In this document: positions 3,453-42,472 of the stretch, in pieces
Position numbering within the stretch: position 1 is the stretch's first letter
How the letters are laid out: every line of letters starts with the position of its first letter
Virus record (IMG/VR): IMGVR_UViG_2922326829_000003
Coordinates: 1-42,709 of that record
Direction: 5' to 3' (one strand)
Source: a virus
Taxonomy: Duplodnaviria > Heunggongvirae > Uroviricota > Caudoviricetes
DNA length: 42,709 nucleotides
Notes under the pieces: model-generated
Told to the model about the DNA's origin: nothing
Databases searched by the model: none
The model's input: only the letters and a program-made list of their open reading frames with translations
Program-made: the position numbers and the translations under genes

Positions 3453-3669
3453 AACAAAAACTATCACAAAGTTTTATGTGTCCATTGGAGGAAAAGAAGT
3501 GGCCTTTCGAACTAAAGAAACAGCAATTAAAGTTGGAAAGATGGCTTTAAAAACTAATAGTGATATTAAACTAATTGAAGAATATCTTCTCTGGGACATT
3601 ACTCCGGGCATTCCAGCTCAATTAATAGACAAACAGAGATTTGATAGAACAATATTAATCAGTTTATAA
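3439..3669 (+). CDS. hypothetical protein
   Basis: ATG at 3439 preferred over the 3394 start in the ORF track, which overlaps the upstream gene more deeply. Confidence 0.55.
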   Translation: MVSSKTKTITKFYVSIGGKEVAFRTKETAIKVGKMALKTNSDIKLIEEYLLWDITPGIPAQLIDKQRFDRTILISL

Positions 3670-5612: not shown

Positions 5613-6959
5613 TTAAAACTCAAAAGCACCATAAACCGGTGTGGTAGTTGTTTCGATTGTAGATTGATTTCTTTGATATTTCTTCCAGCTATCCTTTAAA
5701 AAGTAACAGATGGCATAATCAAGACAATCTGAAAGGTGTCCATACTTCTCGTATTTCTGACCGGTTTTAGGATCAGTTACTTTTGCTTTAGATTTTGTAC
5801 CATCAGGGTTTTTCTTCTGGTAAGTTAAATCTTCCGCAAATCTACGGCACCGCATATCAATTAATATCTCCCAACCATCATAGCCCTTAAACAATTCATT
5901 TATAAATTCCAACCTGGCTGTTTGTGATGGCTGCTTGCTCAACAATTTGGTTTTTGCCCTCAAAATAGGACTGTCCATATTGCTTAGAATGATTGTGTAA
6001 TTATTCACACCATCTTCTGTCTGAGTTGATCGAGCAAGTCCTGAAGGATCACCCGTTATGAATAGACCCCCAACGTGTTTTTCGGTTAAATATTTCTTAG
6101 AAATCTTTTTGGCCAACATCGGAGTATTATTCTCTTTAGCTTCCGGCTTACCAAGTATTTCCTCCAGTATATATACTTTTTTATTATCGTAATCAAACTG
6201 CATAGATAACGTACTCATAAACGGAGATACGTTAAAGTCCCAACTAACAATAATTGGATTTAGTGAATTATAGACTTTTTCCCGTAATCCGGACACCAAA
6301 TGCTTTTCTCCTGAGAATTCCCAGTAAGCAGCCATTTCATTGACATCAATAAAATCCCAGTTACCATAAAGAAGCCTTTCCTTTGTTGCCTTATCCCGTA
6401 TTTTATTTAAAGATGCTTCGTATGTTTGCCTGAAGGCTATATCCGGATTGTCAAATATAGAAAATGGCACATAAGCTTCCCCCTCTTTACACACAACAGG
6501 ATTTCCGTCGTCATCTTGAACGAATCTACTGCGAACCCAATTGATTGTAGGGTTGGTAGAGAGAAACATTCTGGGGGTCTTAAATGTCTCGTGTGTGCGC
6601 CATCTAAGACGAGAAAAGAGAACTTCTACAGCTCTTTCCGAAATCTCCGAAACCTCATCGACAAAGGCTATTGTGTACTCCGAAGAGCCAAATCGTTCAA
6701 AGTTTGGGTCTGAAGGCAAGTCAACCATCTCTTTTAATAAGATGACCGAATCATTCCAGAAAGTAACAGTTCCCTCTAAGTTGTTGATTTTATAATTTAC
6801 CCCCTCTTTTAGCCCCCACGTCTTCAGGATTGTCTTTATAGTGTTGAAAGTGGATTCTTTCAAAGATTTGATAGTTTTACGAGCTACCACTGCTCGGATA
6901 TTCTCAAACCGAATACAACTACTTATAATCCATGCGCTTCCTAAGTATGATTTTCCTCC
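5613..6959 (-). CDS. terL: terminase large subunit, exon 2
   Basis: GGKSYLG end of Walker A, VARKT, FVDE Walker B, STNPT coupling motif, WDFN and HLSDCLDY nuclease motifs. Confidence 0.92.
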   Translation of the reverse strand, partial: GGKSYLGSAWIISSCIRFENIRAVVARKTIKSLKESTFNTIKTILKTWGLKEGVNYKINNLEGTVTFWNDSVILLKEMVDLPSDPNFERFGSSEYTIAFVDEVSEISERAVEVLFSRLRWRTHETFKTPRMFLSTNPTINWVRSRFVQDDDGNPVVCKEGEAYVPFSIFDNPDIAFRQTYEASLNKIRDKATKERLLYGNWDFIDVNEMAAYWEFSGEKHLVSGLREKVYNSLNPIIVSWDFNVSPFMSTLSMQFDYDNKKVYILEEILGKPEAKENNTPMLAKKISKKYLTEKHVGGLFITGDPSGLARSTQTEDGVNNYTIILSNMDSPILRAKTKLLSKQPSQTARLEFINELFKGYDGWEILIDMRCRRFAEDLTYQKKNPDGTKSKAKVTDPKTGQKYEKYGHLSDCLDYAICYFLKDSWKKYQRNQSTIETTTTPVYGAFEF

Positions 6960-7204
6960 CAATTATATTCGCCAAGGTTCGCTACCCCCTTGACCGGTTT
7001 CCCTGCTATATGTTTCCATATAGATTAGACTATATCTTCATCCGTTTCCGGAGGCCCTTGTTTCCAATCGCTTGATTGTACTTCCTTTCGGAATAGTCGT
7101 TGAACCTTGCTTTATGCCTGGCTGCTGATCACCTGTACGGCTTCCCAGCAATTAAAGGGCTTGTTGTCGACACGTTACCGTGAAGGCTGGCAGTGGAGTC
7201 GTTT
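6960..7204 (-). mobile_element. ORF-less group I intron (245 nt) in terL
   Basis: Exon ends in U (GCUGGU|) and intron ends in G. Core elements: P AAUUGCUGGGAA, Q GAUCAGCAGC, R GUUCAACGACUA (7094-7105), S AAGAUAUAGUCU (7027-7038). IGS GCCAGC (7186-7191) pairs with GCUGGU, giving the U.G pair at the splice site. CUCC (7195-7198) can form P10 with exon-2 GGAG. Splicing restores GGAAG-GGKS in frame. Confidence 0.93.
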
Positions 7205-7441
7205 ACCAGCAGCTCCCCCACCCAATATAAGTTGGGGCAGATTTTGTGTTTTACATGATGTGCATTGTGGTTTGTATTGAGGGTTTCCTTTAGGGTCATG
7301 TCCTATTAAAACCTGTTTTATATTCCCCCCACAATGAGGACAGTAATCTGGTTGCAACAGTTTCCAAAGTTCATATTGTCTTGGAGACGGCTCCAAATTT
7401 ATAGTCAAATTTTTAGGTGCTTTTAATAATCCATACGCCAT
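7205..7441 (-). CDS. terL: terminase large subunit, exon 1 (79 codons; spliced protein 527 aa)
   Basis: PSPRQ motif, CPHC...CTSC insert, LILGGGAAG first half of Walker A. Confidence 0.9.
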
Positions 7442-8221
7442 TTATAAATATTTCCAAGTGTAACCACCAGCTGTTCTATATCTACCAGACAAAACTGAAC
7501 TTATACTTGTTGGATTTACCCCAAGTGAAGCGGCAGCAATCTTGATAGACTCAAATTGATATATTTTTCCATCTTTTTGTCCAACAACTTTCCTTCGATG
7601 GTGTCGTGGACCTGTATTTAGTGATGATTTGTTTAAATAAACTGGCGGTTCTTCACAATGACTAAACATAAATCCTTTATGAGAAATAAAATTTTGACTT
7701 TTGTTTAGGCATCTCATAACAGCGCGTCTATCTAAATTTAACGAATCACACATAAACCTTAAACTCAACCATTCATCCAGTAATTTTCCATCCTTATCAA
7801 AACGGTACACTGTTTTTCTATTTGGTTGTTTTTCTCTATTATTTTTCAGTAAATCTTCATCATAACAATTTTTCACTCCCTTATTCCACGGGATTGTCAT
7901 GTCACTGACATAATAACCTCCTTCCTGTACATTTAGTAAAGAGCCCCCTTCATAACTTCTTTTATATAACCGAATCAGTTCTACTTCTTTTAGTACAGCA
8001 TCTTCTTCATTGCCCTCAAAAACGGTTTCAATAATCGGCACTAAACCTAAGTCATCCAATTTTAGAATCCATTTATCTTTCCTACTTAAATATTCGCCCT
8101 TTCTTTTTCTTGTTTTAGCATCCTTACGGTGCGTTTTGAATCTGTGCCATGCAGTATTATTTGAAATACCAACATATTTTATCAAATTATCTAAAGGGTC
8201 TTTTAATATATAGACTATCAT
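7442..8221 (-). CDS. free-standing GIY-YIG homing endonuclease with NUMOD3/NUMOD1-like DNA-binding repeats
   Basis: IVYILKD...KYVGIS...RF..H; E in AVLKEVELI; PWNKG NUMOD3-like; two KxVY.F...G....F.S HTH repeats; stop abuts the terL ATG (TAAATG). Confidence 0.85.
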   Translation of the reverse strand: MIVYILKDPLDNLIKYVGISNNTAWHRFKTHRKDAKTRKRKGEYLSRKDKWILKLDDLGLVPIIETVFEGNEEDAVLKEVELIRLYKRSYEGGSLLNVQEGGYYVSDMTIPWNKGVKNCYDEDLLKNNREKQPNRKTVYRFDKDGKLLDEWLSLRFMCDSLNLDRRAVMRCLNKSQNFISHKGFMFSHCEEPPVYLNKSSLNTGPRHHRRKVVGQKDGKIYQFESIKIAAASLGVNPTSISSVLSGRYRTAGGYTWKYL

Positions 8222-11966: not shown

Positions 11967-12470
11967 TTAAATATTTTCAACCATTAATAATAATTTTTCT
12001 TCAAATTCTTCTACTGTTCCGTTATTTTCAATCACATGTTTGTATAACAGATCATTTACTTGAATTCTATTCGAGTCTCTTTCAATTCTTTCCTTTGCAA
12101 CGCTTGCTGCAATTTTCTCATTGTTACGGTCAATATATACGGCATGTATTTCTGTAAAATTAGCGTATATCAAGTCTTTCAACCCTTTTTCATCAACTAC
12201 ATAGACACATAATGAATCATCTGGAACTTGGCTGAAAGTTGCCCAATAATGATAACCACCATAATATGTGTACGCCATCATTTCAAGCATGTCCGGCATG
12301 TCTTTCTCAGATACAAAATGATGTTCAACTCCATTTGTTTCCCCTTCTCTCATTGGACGTGTTGTATAAGACACGATGTCTGGAACCCCAGCTTTCTTTT
12401 TGAGAATTTGCGTTGCCAATGTTTTACCAGCCCCAGATGGGCCTACAATTGCGATAATTCCTAATTTCAT
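11967..12470 (-). CDS. gmk: guanylate kinase-like protein
   Basis: GPSGAGKT P-loop; VSYTTRPMREGETNGVEHHFVS signature. Confidence 0.88.
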   Translation of the reverse strand: MKLGIIAIVGPSGAGKTLATQILKKKAGVPDIVSYTTRPMREGETNGVEHHFVSEKDMPDMLEMMAYTYYGGYHYWATFSQVPDDSLCVYVVDEKGLKDLIYANFTEIHAVYIDRNNEKIAASVAKERIERDSNRIQVNDLLYKHVIENNGTVEEFEEKLLLMVENI

Positions 12471-14652
12471 AATACTTCTACAATCGAATTTTTAGTAAAC
12501 TGTAAACTATTCTTTCCCGAATAATCGCTGTACTTTACGATAGCCGAGAATATTATCAATTTGTCTTTTGCATTCAATAGTTTCCCTCTATTGTCAGCAT
12601 ATTCGCCAGGCCAAATAACACATTCGCAAGTGTCATTATTTTGCTGTAACACCATTTTACAAAATGTTTCAGTGTCTCCTGTTTTCTTATTTTTGAATTT
12701 TTTTTCTTCGATTTCTACAATAGTCGCACAAATTGCTACTTTTTTACCCTCTTCTTCTAATGGGGCTATTCCCTGTAAGGTAGAATAGGAAGCTTTTCCT
12801 CTAATAGCAGTTTTTGCTTCTGAGTTATCATAAATACGTTTGTAATCAATAGCTCCGATTCCTGAAACTTTCACCTGTTGCTGTGACCAGAAATAATGCT
12901 TGTTTCTCATTTCAATCGGAATATCTTTTTCTTTAATCTCAAACCCTAATCGATTTGCTGCTTTTTCAAGTATGGCGTAGCGTTCAACAACTGATTCTGC
13001 TTTCTCTATCTTGTCGAAACATCCAGCCAAAATAAGATTAGAAACATGTCTGGCATTAACTGGACATCTCTCCACTTCATCTTCATTATCCGGATCATCC
13101 CAGTATTCATATTTTTTCAACTTGTATTTGAAAACTCGATCTATAAAATTTTCAATACTGGTGAAATCCCCATTTTTATTGCGTTCCCCAACAATCCAAC
13201 TTACCGCCTTTGTCCCAAGTTGTTTTATACGTGACAAAGACCAGAAAATAGAATTGGAGGCATAATCAGTGTAAAATTTTTCTTCACTAACATTTATATC
13301 TGGAGGTACAACTTTCGCATTGCTACACGCTTCCATTTCCCCCATTAATGTAACAAGTTCATCGTCATCAGCCCACTGTAAAGCCACTGTATAAAATGCA
13401 GTTGGGTAATTTGCTTTAAGGAAAGCTCCTACATAAGATGTTACTGCATAAGCGGTAGCATGTGATTTATTAAATAAATAGCTTCCACATGCCTCAATTT
13501 GATTCCAGAGAGCGATTGCATCTTCATTTGGGCAACCATTTTTCTTAGCGCCTTCCATGAACTTGCTTTTCATTTCTTGAATTTTATCTGTCTTCTTTTT
13601 TGAAATTAGCTTTACCAGCTTCACACCATCTCCAAGAGAGAAATCACCGACTTCTCTGGAGATTAAAACCACCTGTTCCTGATAAGTAATCAAACCATAA
13701 GTGTCCTTCAGTGCATTGTAAGTCCCCCAAAGATATGTCGGAGCCACTAACCCACTCTTACAATCAATATATGCTTCTGTTGATCCATTTTCTAAGGTGG
13801 CTGGACGATACAATGCGTTCGCTGCAATTAGGTCATTGATGCACGTAGGTTTCATGCTAACCAAGAATTTAGTCATCCCCCTTGAAGCAAACTGGAAAAC
13901 GTTTTGTGTAAATCCTTGCGCCAATAGCTCGTAAGCTTTTGCGTTATCTAAATCGCTTGTTGCAATTAATTCTAATGATAAGTTTGTTCCATATTCACGG
14001 TTACAGATATTCATTGTTGATTGCAGCTTAGATAGTTCTTTTGTGGCCAAGCAGTCATTTTTCAATAAGCCAAGCTCATCCAACTCATAGCCATCATTCT
14101 CAGAAACTAAAATTCCGTCAACTTTTTTGATGGGGATAAAATCAAAACATTCCGCACTCTCCCCATCCTTTTCGTCTGGCGTTACAAGTAGGGCCGATGC
14201 GTGAATTGAAGCTGAACGTGGCTGAAACATTAATGTTCGAATATCTTCAAATAAATCAGGGTAATCTTCAACGAACTTAGCAACCTTTCTGTTTTCAGCT
14301 GCTAACTTGAATATGCCTGTAAAATCACATTTGTCATCATCAAATATAGCTGTTAGATAATTAACCAATTGTGGGGGTATACGTTTTGTTCGCCCAACAT
14401 CTTTCAATACCGCTTTTACTTTCAATGTAGTCAATGTTCCTGCTGAGAATACACGTTGCTTTCCATTATAATTATAACGGGTTTCAATATATTCTTTTAT
14501 TTCACCCCTTCTATCTGACTGAAAATCAATATCTACATCCGACCTTACGGCAGGGAGCCATTGGCTCCCTGCAAATACCCTCCATCAACGAAGCAATCAA
14601 GAACATTGACCGACTTCGTACTTTTAATTTGTTTTACATTTAAAATTTTCAT
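12467..14652 (-). CDS. dnaE: DNA polymerase III alpha (DnaE) C-terminal half, interrupted by an 8-nt insertion at 14540-14547
   Basis: ATG at 14652 gives 35 codons ending GSLP then TAA. The frame resumes 8 nt later with DVDIDF...SIHASA...KNDCL...ITYQEQV...FNKSHATAY and a C-terminal OB fold (690 aa); joined product 725 aa. Confidence 0.88.
14540..14547 (-). other. 8-nt coding gap TAAGGTCG between CCG (Pro35) and GAT (Asp); candidate translational bypass site
   Basis: CTG CCG [TAAGGTCG] GAT GTA GAT ATT GAT TTT; exact removal restores the PDxDxDF catalytic motif. Confidence 0.6.
14550..14572. repeat. 23-bp palindrome (perfect 10-bp stem, 3-nt loop) within coding sequence
   Basis: GCAGGGAGCC-AAT-GGCTCCCTGC, ending at the first base of the CCG codon before the gap. 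Confidence 0.9.
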
Positions 14653-15185
14653 TTGAAATAAGTTTTATTGTTAACTATGTTACATATTGTTTGCTTATGG
14701 ACACCATAAGTTGCAGCTAAGTCTTTTTGCAAAACACCCTTGGAGTGTTGTTCCCTGATTTCAGCAGCTTGTTGATTTGTCAGCTTTGCATTAGTACTTA
14801 ATTCTCCATAATCATTTTTAAGCATGTTTGCTACCGAATGATCTATGTTTACCTGATGCGTAACAACCTCTAAATTGGCGGCTCTATTGTCAAATCTTAC
14901 TCCATTTTTATGATTGACTTCTAATTTTGAATTTGTATCTAACTCTAAAAACACAATAGCCACCAGCCTATGTATCAAAAATTTATGTGTACAGTTGTAC
15001 TTGCTTAATTGAATGCTTAAATAGTTGCATGTTGCGCCTTTAAATGGTGTTAGTACCCTTCCTTTACAAAACTGAATTGTCCCATCACTTTTGTCAACAT
15101 ACCTATCAACACTTCTAACGTTACCATTATTACTTACTTGATAGTATCCTTCATATTCAGGAATATCTTTCCAAACTTCTTTCAT
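14649..15185 (-). CDS. free-standing NUMOD4-HNH homing endonuclease (I-HmuI-like) with C-terminal HTH
   Basis: EVWKDIPEYEGYYQVSNNGNVRS (NUMOD4); IHRLVA...VNHKNG...DNRAANLE (HNH); ATGA overlap with the dnaE-C start. Confidence 0.9.
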   Translation of the reverse strand: MKEVWKDIPEYEGYYQVSNNGNVRSVDRYVDKSDGTIQFCKGRVLTPFKGATCNYLSIQLSKYNCTHKFLIHRLVAIVFLELDTNSKLEVNHKNGVRFDNRAANLEVVTHQVNIDHSVANMLKNDYGELSTNAKLTNQQAAEIREQHSKGVLQKDLAATYGVHKQTICNIVNNKTYFK

Positions 15186-15186
15186 T

Positions 15187-16485
15187 CTATGTTTTCATAC
15201 AACTACTGTTAAAAAAGTTATTTGCTTTTTTATAAGCTTTTTCAAATTGAAGTAATTCATAATCTGGAATAATGTGTCGTTTATCAATAAAGGTATCCGA
15301 AACAATGCCTTCCAGTGTCCTGCATCGACTTAAAGCTACATAAATTTGCCCTGGACAGAAAACACCTTGGGTGTGTATAACCACACGATCAAAAGTTAAC
15401 CCTTGGCTCTTATGAATAGTAATGGCCCACGCTAAAGTGATAGGAAACTGCGTGCAGCTACCTTTTTCTTTTGCTGTTATTTCTCCATCTTCCATCTTAT
15501 ATTCATAAGTTACCCACTTGCATTTTGAGATTCCAACAGTTGATCCATTATCTAATTTTATAACTATAGTCTTATCATCAATGCTTTCAACTACCCCAAG
15601 TGTGCCATTACAATACTGTTGGAATCGATCATTTACCAGTATCATAACACGTGCGTCCTTTCTAACCATAAGTTTGCGATCACATGGAGCGCTATTTAAT
15701 GAGAAATCACCTTCAACCTCTGCATAAAATGTATGAGTCGGCTCTCCCAACATAGTTTCATTGATATTCTGAACGTCCTTTTTATGAGTGCAGATATGAA
15801 TGTATTGGTTGTCAAATTTGTCACTAATCTTTTTATTTCTCAGCTCTTCCAATTCTTCTAAATCACTATTAGTGATCTTGTATTCACGAATATTATTCAA
15901 AAGTTCAATGAATCTCGGTTCTGATTGTCGAAATATGCGATTTAGCTCTACTATGTGAAAACCATTCTCTTGGAATGCTTTTGCATAGAAAAAGTAAATC
16001 CCACTGTAAAACTGCAATAAGATAGATTTTTCATCATCAAGAACAACTGGTGGCAATTGAAATAGGTCTCCAAACATGATGACCTGAACCCCACCAAAAG
16101 GAAGAGAGCAGTTTCTACATATTTGCAATCTCCTATTTATGAAATCTAATACATCAGGGCGTACCATGCTGATTTCATCAATAACAAGAACCTCCATTGA
16201 ATTAAGTATTTCCGCTTTTTCCTGACTTATGGTTGATTTGATACTTGTATAAGGATTTATAGGTCCAAATGGGATATTGAACAAACTATGAAGAGTTACA
16301 CCACCTGCATTTATAGCTGCAACGCCGGTTGGAGCGGCTATAAGAAACTGTTTTTGAACTGTTTCTTTTATATACCTCAACAGAGTCGTCTTTCCAGTAC
16401 CCGCTTTTCCTGTTATATATATTGTCGAATTTGTATTATTAATCAAATCCAACGCTTCTTTCATTTCATCTGTAATTGTTATCAT
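15187..16485 (-). CDS. Pif1/RecD-like SF1B helicase
   Basis: ITGKAGTGKT, APTGVAA, IDEISM, FGDLFQLPPV, FRQ, QFP..LAWAITIHKSQGLT, YVALSR. Confidence 0.92.
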   Translation of the reverse strand: MITITDEMKEALDLINNTNSTIYITGKAGTGKTTLLRYIKETVQKQFLIAAPTGVAAINAGGVTLHSLFNIPFGPINPYTSIKSTISQEKAEILNSMEVLVIDEISMVRPDVLDFINRRLQICRNCSLPFGGVQVIMFGDLFQLPPVVLDDEKSILLQFYSGIYFFYAKAFQENGFHIVELNRIFRQSEPRFIELLNNIREYKITNSDLEELEELRNKKISDKFDNQYIHICTHKKDVQNINETMLGEPTHTFYAEVEGDFSLNSAPCDRKLMVRKDARVMILVNDRFQQYCNGTLGVVESIDDKTIVIKLDNGSTVGISKCKWVTYEYKMEDGEITAKEKGSCTQFPITLAWAITIHKSQGLTFDRVVIHTQGVFCPGQIYVALSRCRTLEGIVSDTFIDKRHIIPDYELLQFEKAYKKANNFFNSSCMKT

Positions 16486-16488
16486 GGT

Positions 16489-18201
16489 TTATAACTCATT
16501 TATGGTAAATAAAACATCTCTGTTGTCAAACAGAATATCATCCCCTTCCTGTATCTCATCAGCATATACTACTATTGAATCATGTTCCGCTTCTCTCTTT
16601 ACGATTAATTCGGCATCCTTATCTACTTTGATTGTTTTTCCGTTTTCAAGAGTGATTTCAATGAAATCGTTCGATGAAATATCCTCAGATATAATAGTTG
16701 TTTCAGAGGGATACAAACCCGCTCTTTCCGGAAGAAGAAATCGTTCAAAAATCAAGTCGTATTTTATCGGATCAATTAAAGTTATGCCTAACAAAAATAA
16801 CAGTAGTGAACCAGCAGCTGACCCACGGCCACACCCTACCAATATACCATTTTGTCTTGCCCAGTTGCATGTGTCATACTGCACAAGAAGGTAGTCTACA
16901 TTGTTTGTAGACTCAATGATATATTTTTCATATTCCATTTGTTTCCGGTACTGTTCTTCTTTACCTTTCGGCACCAATCGCTCAAACCCTTCATCTAAAA
17001 GTTGATTAAACATATTATGAGCACTTCCATATTTCCTGGCTTCTTCCAGAGTCAGGTCATATTTAGGCATGAAATTTCGAGTATTGTCAAACCGGGCATT
17101 TGCGTTTTCCAGTATATCCATTGAGTTATCACAACATTCTTGAAATAATGCTGGAATATCCCATTTTTCACTATCAAACAATTGCTCAAACAAACTGTAA
17201 TGATCATCAACATCTTTGTAAAACTGTTCCTCACTTTGTTCGTGAGCAGCGCCTTCTGCGACTTTGTTTAAAATGATTTTATTCTTTGCATCATCTCGGT
17301 CGAGATAATAACAATCGGTCAGAAGTACTGGTGGAAGATCGAATTCTTTATCTTGATATATTTCATCAAAATATAGTTTAGCTGCGTTCAAGACTTTAAC
17401 ATCAATCCTCTCAGCCTTATATTCTGATAAATCAACCTGAAAGAAAACATCAATGAAATTGTCTTGTAAATCCCAGACAGCTTCCTTATTGTCTTTAATC
17501 CAAAAAGAAGAATATTTATTTAAAACAATAATATTTCCATCACCGCGACGAATAAGCTCATCAAATTGAATAGTTTTATCAGAACTATCGACCATAATAG
17601 CCTTTTGAATTCTCAACAGATTTTGCAGCCCTTTCTGCGTCTGCACATAGACTTTAGCTCCAATTTTGTTTTCACCTTCAATGAAATTCAACGAATACCC
17701 AAAGACAAATTTTAGGTTTTTCGCTTCACATTCTTTTTGAAGGTTAAAGCAGGCAGCCATGGTATTCTGGTCACATATTCCAATACCAGGATGTCTGCAA
17801 AATTGTGCTTTTTCTACCCATGACTTCGGCATAAAGCTTCCATTAAGCAATTCATAGGGGGTGTGGATACCCAAGTTTGCATATTCAAACTGTTGTGATG
17901 GTGGTACTTTTTCACCAATATACTTTAGAATATTAAGCTTGAAATCTTTGCGTAAATCTGTATAATAGAAATTATTGCCAAATTTAAAAACAGCATAATT
18001 AATACCTTCTTCAATTAATACAGATGGCTGTTCCATGCTGTTAAATACCAGAGCGCCATCTTTATTTTTTTTAAAAATAGATTGGATTTTATCGGTATCT
18101 TCAAAAAACATTTTTCCAAAACCGATTATTTCAATTACTTCATCATCAATCACTTTATATGAAACCTTATTAGTGATCAACCATTCTATCAATTCTTTCA
18201 T
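16489..18201 (-). CDS. dnaE: DNA polymerase III alpha (DnaE) N-terminal half (PHP domain) ending in an intein-N-like segment
   Basis: HTPYELLNGS, GICD, DCYYL, GCGRGSAAGSL, DPIKYDLIFERFLLPER; last 75 aa Hint-like. Confidence 0.9.
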   Translation of the reverse strand: MKELIEWLITNKVSYKVIDDEVIEIIGFGKMFFEDTDKIQSIFKKNKDGALVFNSMEQPSVLIEEGINYAVFKFGNNFYYTDLRKDFKLNILKYIGEKVPPSQQFEYANLGIHTPYELLNGSFMPKSWVEKAQFCRHPGIGICDQNTMAACFNLQKECEAKNLKFVFGYSLNFIEGENKIGAKVYVQTQKGLQNLLRIQKAIMVDSSDKTIQFDELIRRGDGNIIVLNKYSSFWIKDNKEAVWDLQDNFIDVFFQVDLSEYKAERIDVKVLNAAKLYFDEIYQDKEFDLPPVLLTDCYYLDRDDAKNKIILNKVAEGAAHEQSEEQFYKDVDDHYSLFEQLFDSEKWDIPALFQECCDNSMDILENANARFDNTRNFMPKYDLTLEEARKYGSAHNMFNQLLDEGFERLVPKGKEEQYRKQMEYEKYIIESTNNVDYLLVQYDTCNWARQNGILVGCGRGSAAGSLLLFLLGITLIDPIKYDLIFERFLLPERAGLYPSETTIISEDISSNDFIEITLENGKTIKVDKDAELIVKREAEHDSIVVYADEIQEGDDILFDNRDVLFTINEL

Positions 18202-42292: not shown

Positions 42293-42472
42293 AAAGCCTT
42301 CAATCCTTGGGTCCAACTTCTTCGAAACATTTCTGCCCTACCAAACTCTACCCGCTACTTTGTTTTTTCAACTTTCCGAACTATATTCGCTATTGTTGAG
42401 GCTTGCCCCCTTTGGCTCCGCTTTGAAAGACACGCTTTCGGTGCTTTATGCCAATTATCAATTTCTTTTGTT

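Follow-up and report, generated by a model that had tools for sequence, protein, structure and literature searches.

A homing-endonuclease cassette in a naturally split phage dnaE gene and the probable ribosomal hop across its coding gap

The window analysed here, a 42,709-nt stretch of Caudoviricetes DNA (IMG/VR record IMGVR_UViG_2922326829_000003, positions 1 to 42,709), carries a replicase gene, dnaE, which is naturally split into two halves (dnaE-N and dnaE-C) and whose second half is interrupted in its catalytic motif. Positions 14540-15185 are probably to be read as a homing-endonuclease cassette in this split gene, with a short coding gap over which the ribosome hops. The cassette extends from the ATG that formerly started dnaE-C to the proposed landing codon of the hop, and is made up of a NUMOD4-HNH gene, a diverged 35-codon dnaE-C leader, a 10-bp hairpin in the last codons of this leader and a gap of the form CCG-stop-TCG. 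Coordinates are window positions throughout, with every gene of this region on the minus strand. The cassette and its flanks comprise the following features:

15187..16485, minus strand: PIF1/Dda-like helicase gene (Pfam PIF1, 1.3e-29; PHROG Dda-like helicase, 7.9e-84)
14649..15185, minus strand: free-standing NUMOD4-HNH_3 homing-endonuclease gene with a C-terminal helix-turn-helix, left part of the mobile cassette
14548..14652, minus strand: the cassette's own 35-codon dnaE-C leader (MKILNV...GANGSLP), its ATG overlapping the HNH stop
14550..14572, minus strand: perfect 10-bp hairpin GCAGGGAGCC-AAT-GGCTCCCTGC, proposed 5' stimulator of the hop
14548..14550, minus strand: proposed take-off codon CCG (Pro35), based on codon statistics among insert alleles
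14540..14547, minus strand: 8-nt coding gap TAAGGTCG, made up of the stop TAA, GG and the proposed landing codon TCG (14540-14542)
12467..14539, minus strand: dnaE-C body of 690 codons plus stop, beginning with the catalytic DVDIDF, right flank of the cassette

The genes are arranged in the order DnaB-like helicase, primase, dnaE-N, PIF1/Dda-like helicase, NUMOD4-HNH_3 and dnaE-C. The stop codon of the PIF1/Dda-like helicase gene (TAG, 15187-15189) is separated by 1 nt (15186) from the ATG of the HNH gene (15183-15185), the stop codon of which (TGA, 14649-14651) overlaps the ATG of dnaE-C (14650-14652) in the sequence ATGA (14649-14652). A sequence-only reading of the same DNA had placed the HNH gene between the two neighbours in this way, and its positions agreed to the base. 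It had also described 8 nt inside a conserved motif about 100 nt downstream, which is indeed the case: the 35 leader codons, MKILNVKQIKSTKSVNVLDCFVDGGYLQGANGSLP, are followed by TAA (14545-14547), and TAAGGTCG lies within LP|DVDIDF. The catalytic motif is split by this excess of 8 nt, and DVDIDF resumes at GAT (14537-14539) in a different frame. Reinitiation after the stop is ruled out, as the resuming frame holds neither ATG, GTG nor TTG before the catalytic aspartates. Gene callers report only a 655-aa dnaE-C open reading frame (ORF) with a TTG start downstream of the catalytic motif. One feature passed over in the earlier reading is the perfect 10-bp hairpin at 14550-14572, which ends with the initial C of the Pro codon CCG.

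The HNH gene encodes a product of 178 aa with matches to Pfam NUMOD4 (1.5e-16) and HNH_3 (6.7e-07) and to PHROG 59, HNH endonuclease (7e-42). Its catalytic core is intact, with H92, N104, N113 and H116 being invariant in the alignment (9 homologues). The dnaE-C body matches Pfam DNA_pol3_alpha at positions 102-260, as well as the finger and HHH_6 domains. A group I or group II intron or an intein was considered as the interrupting element and rejected: there is no intron core, there are no Hint blocks, and 8 nt is too short. The earlier reading had stated that an intron core would not fit here. Rfam gives no match at the interruption; the one group I intron that it reports is a separate one at 7006-7244.

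Scans of viral, metagenomic and genomic collections yielded 150 classifiable related loci (given L numbers below), with the metagenomic relatives being the best 80 of 310. A megablast search of the 5.9-kb region against the phage collection gave zero matches, and the relatives were found in protein mode; they are related prophages and phage contigs in Bacteroides, Prevotella, Muribaculaceae, Alistipes, Dysgonomonas and others. Of the 150 loci, 17 have an insert at exactly the same site, and these 17 represent 14 distinct junctions and 11 variants from independent assemblies. Counted by distinct junction, the insert is 6 nt long in one, 7 nt in seven and 8 nt in six, and all three phases are present. 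In 17 of 17 insert loci LP|D[VI]D is regained when the 6, 7 or 8 nt are skipped, and the other 133 relatives read the motif unbroken.

The sequences around the insert follow a common pattern. Directly after the Pro codon, the first triplet of the insert is a stop in all 14 distinct alleles (TAA in 10, TGA in three, TAG in one). The codon before the insert is CCG in 13 of these alleles and CCT in the remaining one, as compared to CCG at 19 of 95 Pro codons (20%) in insert-less alleles. The last triplet before GAY is TCG in eight alleles, CCG in two, and GCG, ACG, CTG and TCA in one each, with TCA occurring together with the take-off codon CCT. An exact match of take-off and landing triplet (CCG/CCG) is seen in two distinct alleles and a match at two of three positions (NCG) in ten, and all landing triplets keep at least two positions that can pair with a tRNA(Pro) anticodon, CTG and TCA via G.U pairs. 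The host tRNA(Pro) anticodons are CGG, GGG and UGG; no tRNA gene was found within the window, and hence no phage tRNA(Pro) with an unusual anticodon loop is encoded there.

Two relatives illustrate the two states of the locus. In the nearest cultured relative, Bacteroides phage BS-TP1 (L002, PQ571274.1; host B. salyersiae; 78% identity in DnaE-C), dnaE is split in the same way by the helicase gene. This phage lacks the HNH gene, the insert and the hairpin, and reads ...HGSLPDVDNDF... unbroken. In its GenBank record the uninterrupted dnaE-C is unannotated, and the gene spans the ends of the record (L002 1-1628). The window's arrangement is found again in the distant relative MT835494 (L003; 55% identity, much higher G+C), where the HNH stop likewise overlaps the leader ATG. 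The hairpin of MT835494 has a different 10-bp sequence, GGAGGGCGGA-CAT-TCCGCCCTCC, and is followed by CCG TAA G GCG GAT, which corresponds to a 7-nt insert.

The borders of the mobile unit were obtained from pairs of near-identical phages with and without the cassette (L076/L077, L090/L093 and L007/L069). L076 and L077 share 99.3% identity over 600 nt past the landing site and 96% on the left flank, and the HNH gene is found in only one of them. The DnaE-C proteins of L090 and L093 are identical (codons 21-400 compared). In pairs with flanks of 96-99% identity, the leaders are only 67-70% identical (70% for L076/L077). When L076 and L077 are aligned, identity restarts exactly at GATGTAGAT (GAT on the landing side), immediately past the gap, and at the left border the HNH ATG takes the position of the former leader ATG. 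From the near-identical pairs and the exact borders it therefore follows that the mobile unit is the HNH gene together with its own leader, the hairpin and the gap, which in the window corresponds to 14540-15185. Furthermore, the insert is polyphyletic on the DnaE tree: on a DnaE-C tree computed without the junction codons at least 8-9 state changes are needed, and a single insert clade costs 1028 log-likelihood units (approximately unbiased test, p=5e-88). The proposal of the sequence-only reading that HNH gene and gap form a mobile cassette is supported by these pairs, the borders and the polyphyly, with the addition that the unit also holds the leader and the hairpin.

All 14 distinct insert alleles have a perfect hairpin of 9-10 bp running up to and including the first base of the Pro codon, and in none of the insert-less alleles (n=110 distinct) does a perfect stem at this position exceed 6 bp. 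When 10 distinct sequences are aligned, every cell of the helix is paired, and five of the ten pairs change on both sides, that is, in a compensatory manner. This covariation was matched by none of 500 shuffles, and slid controls were only 33-60% paired. L007 (with insert) and L008 (insert-less) both encode LQGPGGSLP, but only the codons of L007 pair into a hairpin; as the peptide is identical and only the insert allele pairs, selection must act on the nucleic acid. GC-rich perfect hairpins of at least 9 bp number 40 in the 4.4-Mb genome that contains the window (about one per 110 kb), with one other in the putative prophage region described below. The combination of hairpin, stop and gap was also sought beside 40 other NUMOD4-HNH genes on unrelated viral contigs, and was found in the dnaE family only.

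Downstream of the insert, dnaE-C is under strong purifying selection. An intact ORF of 689-707 codons in register with the resumption codon was found in 11 of 11 insert alleles checked, and the ratio of nonsynonymous to synonymous substitution rates (dN/dS) between insert-bearing pairs is 0.019-0.068. The DnaE-C proteins of the insert lineages have diverged by up to 45% of their amino acids without decay. Intact ORFs, low dN/dS and wide divergence taken together are not the behaviour of a pseudogene.

The association between HNH genes and insert is clade-specific and historical, and neither random nor absolute. The HNH tree contains well-supported clades A-E, of which clade A (window, L004/L055, L007, L076) and clade B (L003 and the proximal copy in L175) always lie beside the insert, and clades C (Alistipes type), D (L101 group) and E (L149 group) as well as L128 and L183 never do. 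In L175 a clade-C and then a clade-B HNH gene follow each other in tandem, and it is the clade-B copy that adjoins the insert. Over the 150 loci, the earlier expectation that HNH gene and insert occur together therefore stands for clades A and B; it fails for the other clades, which are insert-less, and for six insert alleles that have no HNH gene. A simple 2x2 comparison of any HNH gene with the insert gives a weak association (Fisher p=0.02, distinct junctions) that is confounded by relatedness, and for this reason the argument rests on the HNH-clade analysis and the near-identical pairs.

Seven of the 14 distinct insert alleles were HNH-less in the automatic table, one of which (L090) has its HNH gene at the contig edge, so that six remain. 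All HNH-less insert alleles keep the cassette hairpin and the gap (e.g. L092, L098, L100, L153, L162); L005/L056 retain about 30 nt of the HNH 3' end, and L079 retains a leader of the cassette type. By analogy with MobA elements, these remnants point to a loss of the HNH gene after invasion. In the lineage of L100 (2809-3378; also L092, L098 and L153) a Bro-N/anti-repressor-like gene replaces the PIF1 helicase gene between the dnaE halves.

HNH genes of clades D and E adjoin rewritten sites, namely GSGKTMS|DVD(IDF) and GGSCG|DVD, in place of GGSLP|DVD. Such sites, without a gap, are found in L101, L104, L106, L110, L113, L116, L154 and L155 (junction near 3501) and in L149-L151. Rewriting of the site at the protein level beside clades D and E may be an alternative route to self-immunity. 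Homing genes also appear, from the gene content of two loci, to stack at the dnaE site: L003 (MT835494.1, 5220-6892) has a DNA methyltransferase gene, a truncated HNH gene and a full HNH gene between the dnaE halves, and L175 (2327-3384) has two full HNH genes of different clades in tandem. A canonical in-frame mini-intein, which begins with CISGKE and ends with VVTCN|S, is present in dnaE-C at the FNK|SHATAY motif in L162 (4575-5093) and likewise in L173, L188 and L163. One polymerase gene family is hit by true inteins, by the presumed bypass gap and by HNH genes.

From these comparisons we infer where the HNH endonuclease cleaves, how the carrier is protected and how the gap is translated. 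The enzyme would cut cassette-less alleles at or near the conserved ...CTN CCN GAY GTN GAY... site, and repair off a cassette donor would copy the entire unit. The insert and the rewritten leader would destroy the target site, by which the carrier would be protected. A C-terminal Pro slows termination, which would prolong a pause at the interruption, and Bacteroidota rely little on Shine-Dalgarno (SD) pairing, which would suit a hairpin as substitute for an SD-like stimulator. During translation the ribosome would pause with peptidyl-tRNA(Pro) on CCG and the stop codon in the A site, and the upstream hairpin adjoining the take-off codon would refold behind the ribosome, so that the mRNA is driven forward. 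The tRNA(Pro) would then re-pair 8 nt downstream on UCG and decoding would restart at GAU, giving the normal motif ...GSLPDVDIDF... in the product; in other alleles tRNA(Pro) would re-pair on NCG (or CUG, UCA) 6-8 nt downstream before GAY is decoded. The role of the hairpin as forward driver is suggested by analogy with hairpin models on 70S ribosomes and with gene 60.

A hop from CCG to a near-matching NCG seems to be the best explanation for all variants. It is favoured because all three phases occur and no single frameshift serves every variant; a hop would give the wild-type motif in each of them, whereas frameshifting or readthrough would put 2-3 residues between P and D. Beyond this, we consider it an even call that a minimal portable bypass module, consisting of Pro plus stop, an abutting GC-rich hairpin and a near-copy of the Pro codon 6-8 nt further on, suffices for an efficient and frame-independent hop without an A-site stem-loop or an SD-like element.

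Several observations weigh against homing and hopping as proposed here. The hairpin abuts the take-off codon, so its 3' arm would be inside the ribosome at take-off, whereas the 5' stem-loop of T4 gene 60 lies 9 nt upstream. Most landing codons match the take-off codon at only two of three positions, CTG and TCA need G.U pairs, and the NCG landing triplet could simply be what is left of the original Pro codon. An HNH gene is missing from about half of the distinct insert alleles, and the presumed immunity function of the gap may be dispensable. HNH genes of other clades occupy the same position without an insert in 22 distinct loci, and those of clade C and L128 adjoin ordinary SLP|D sites, so that the insert is not required there. 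Finally, the window copy is located in a prophage.

As an alternative, the same mobile cassette could be decoded by recoding that is specific to each phase, leaving 2-3 extra residues before the aspartates. The 7-nt inserts would then need a +1 shift at CCG-stop, the 8-nt inserts a -1/+2 shift (SLP-VRS-DVDIDF or SLP-RS-DVD) and the 6-nt insert readthrough. The required frames are open across the gap in all variants, and the classical context for a +1 shift combines a stop in the A site, a tRNA in the P site and an upstream duplex, upstream hairpins being known to stimulate +1 shifts on 70S ribosomes. We nevertheless regard this as unlikely, since three mechanisms would be needed for near-identical elements, with L076 (8 nt) and L079 (6 nt, in-frame stop) having a common leader and hairpin. 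A -1 shift would lack an X XXY YYZ slippery site, tRNA(Pro) would re-pair poorly at +1 (CGU) as well as at -1 (GCC), and among about 130 insert-less relatives there is never a residue between P and D[VI]D. The conserved NCG right before GAY is also left unexplained by recoding. Alternatively, the insert could be a tolerated lesion, with dnaE-C either unmade or made leaderless through non-canonical initiation, and with a polymerase of the host or another polymerase being used, in which case the prophage copy may decay. The location of the window copy in an integrated prophage and the fact that gene callers show only the 655-aa ORF, with its TTG start past the catalytic motif, would fit such a lesion. 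However, the 17 independent insert loci, including viral contigs of about 110 kb, keep an ORF of 689-707 codons in register with a dN/dS of 0.02-0.07, the catalytic DxD is upstream of every canonical start codon, and insert lineages that are up to 45% diverged in DnaE-C show no decay. In addition, a dead gene would not keep the hairpin, the stop and the landing triplet, which are visibly selected, and a lesion of this kind is thus quite improbable.

Removal of the 6-8 nt from the mRNA, by a micro-intron or by hairpin-guided cleavage and ligation or editing, would agree with the variable insert length and the fixed resumption point, as expected for precise excision, and the conserved covarying hairpin could be the recognition element of a processing enzyme. 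We know of no bacterial or phage system in which 6-8 nt are excised from mRNA, the Rfam search gave no intron core apart from the separate group I intron, and the 105 nt upstream of the gap are coding and conserved as protein. Nor does excision account for the invariable stop after Pro, the bias towards CCG or the NCG landing triplet, which are classical ribosomal signals, and it is accordingly very improbable. An assembly or sequencing artefact in this genome has next to no chance of being the cause of the 8 nt: the identical TAAGGTCG is found in L092, L098, L100 and L153, together with a related hairpin and no HNH gene, and the ten other insert variants come from GenBank, IMG/VR, ENA and metagenome-assembled genomes of unrelated studies. 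The proposed hop on a homing cassette is therefore retained as the preferred reading.

The first half of the split gene is context and lies outside the cassette:

16489..18201, minus strand: dnaE-N (Pfam PHP and DNA_pol3_alpha profile positions 3-99), kept by all relatives

It consists of a PHP domain, the first part of the DNA polymerase III alpha core and a 76-aa C-terminal tail. The split of dnaE with a helicase gene between the halves is common to all relatives, cassette or not, and the PIF1/Dda-like helicase gene, which forms the left flank of the cassette in the window, is accordingly found in relatives with and without it. The dnaE-N tail (16489-16716) and the dnaE-C leader (14548-14652), both on the minus strand, are conserved in all relatives and look by eye like split-intein halves without catalytic residues. 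Profile searches of tail and leader against Pfam and PDB sequences gave no intein or Hint match. The pair may be a non-covalent docking module.

The window is contained in a 320-kb contig (C52:12888-55596) of a 4.4-Mb genome with 39% G+C. A low-GC stretch at about C52 11.3-119 kb (0.35-0.39 as compared to 0.40-0.42 in the flanks) starts just past a host tRNA-Phe gene (C52:11263-11337) and ends near a tRNA cluster at 117-119 kb (Met, a different Phe, Asn, Trp and Ser). Because this stretch of about 110 kb adjoins the tRNA-Phe gene, we take the window, on base composition and gene context, to be part of an integrated Bacteroidales prophage of about 106-110 kb beside tRNA-Phe. It looks like a prophage that was integrated via tRNA-Phe and has tRNAs of its own. 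The group I intron mentioned above (Rfam RF00028, 70 bits, full length; 7006-7244, minus strand) lies between ORFs 5613-6962 and 7442-8221 and would be a second homing-type interruption in this prophage. An RT-3 RNA (Rfam RF03068, 114 bits) is located at 42308-42456 on the minus strand, at the end of the window.

In the literature searched, no published description of this element was found. To our knowledge, nearly all evidence for programmed translational bypassing has so far come from a single homologous family, T4 gene 60/MobA. Hops in Escherichia coli are reportedly non-programmed and inefficient. Low-level tRNA hopping over a stop in E. coli is reported to have included +5/+6 hops and a case in which one amino acid was made from nine nucleotides (Weiss et al. 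1987; O'Connor et al. 1989). The proposed hop resembles these in that peptidyl-tRNA would move a short way, independently of frame, off a sense codon and across the neighbouring stop to a similar codon shortly beyond it. It differs in that the gap is in a replicase gene, conserved and mobile, and comes with a dedicated hairpin, which implies a useful hop efficiency.

On 70S ribosomes, refolding of a hairpin juxtaposed 5' of a CUUUGA site moves the frame forward (Huang, Cho & Chang 2018, PMC6321510). The +1 frameshifting of the prfB type (CUU UGA) has in common with the window the stop in the A site and the juxtaposed 5' duplex or hairpin that would push the frame forward; in prfB the shift is of one base with overlapping re-pairing, whereas here shifts of 6, 7 and 8 nt would all rely on one set of signals.

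Another point of comparison is the bypassing, candidate or confirmed, of the Streptomyces phage phiHau3 terminase genes and of Magnusiomyces mitochondrial byp elements. In Magnusiomyces the gaps are 27-55 nt long. Likenesses are the programmed gap in an essential gene, a codon in the A site that slows the ribosome and, possibly, codons that match fully or nearly; the rare sense codon UUA takes the slow position there, as opposed to a stop here. Neither homing nor HNH is mentioned in the phiHau3 paper (PMC10732093). With collaborative homing and fractured genes (Dassa et al. 2009, PMC2677866) the cassette shares a free-standing endonuclease beside an essential-gene motif that is interrupted in carriers. 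The interruption here, by contrast, is spliced neither as RNA nor as protein, there being no intron core and no match to Hint or intein hidden Markov models.

The closest parallel is the T4 gene 60/MobA cassette with its 50-nt bypass, which is still called unique by its authors. The MobA/gene 60 element ends at the landing codon, the nuclease ORF overlaps the downstream ORF, and the bypass outlasts the loss of the nuclease (Bonocora et al. 2011, cited in Manning & Atkins, bioRxiv 10.1101/2022.08.31.505936). Base pairing within the mRNA as it leaves the ribosome was proposed as forward driver of the gene 60 bypass. The window element is alike in having the nuclease ORF directly upstream of and overlapping the interrupted ORF, a diverged N-terminal copy of its own, an end at the landing codon, a stop directly after the proposed take-off codon and, possibly, codons that match or nearly match. 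In both, the insert is polyphyletic and interrupts an invariant catalytic motif in a replication enzyme that is split, and the presumed bypass is kept in lineages without the nuclease.

Membership in the homologous MobA/gene 60 family was nonetheless rejected on the nuclease family, the target gene, the gap length and the structures. The window nuclease is of the NUMOD4 plus HNH_3 type; in T4, the mobA remnant has a match to Pfam HNH PF01844, and gp60.1 has none at all. The target is the PDxD motif of dnaE and not the Toprim domain of the topoisomerase II large-subunit gene, and dnaE was already split before the invasion, while the MobA element itself splits the topoisomerase gene. The gap is 6-8 nt as against 20-50 nt, there is no take-off stem-loop in the A site and no room for a mini-SD, and the only conserved structure is the perfect hairpin that abuts the 5' side of the take-off codon. 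Moreover, the take-off tRNA would be Pro, as opposed to Gly or Asp, and the hosts are Bacteroidales. Judged by its sequence, the element is a compact, independent and non-homologous counterpart of the T4 gene 60/MobA cassette.

With 11 natural variants, clear covariation, all three phases and controls with and without the insert, it offers a minimal system that can be tested directly. It raises the questions of how the ribosome releases a codon and lands again, of pairing of the exiting mRNA as a driver, and of how homing endonucleases colonise codons that do not tolerate the insertion of amino acids. Gene callers truncate or break dnaE in these abundant gut Bacteroidales phages, which could be misjudged as defective. 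If the reading given here is true, a homing endonuclease combined with a bypass gap would be a recurrent and independently evolved way into invariant catalytic motifs, beyond T4.

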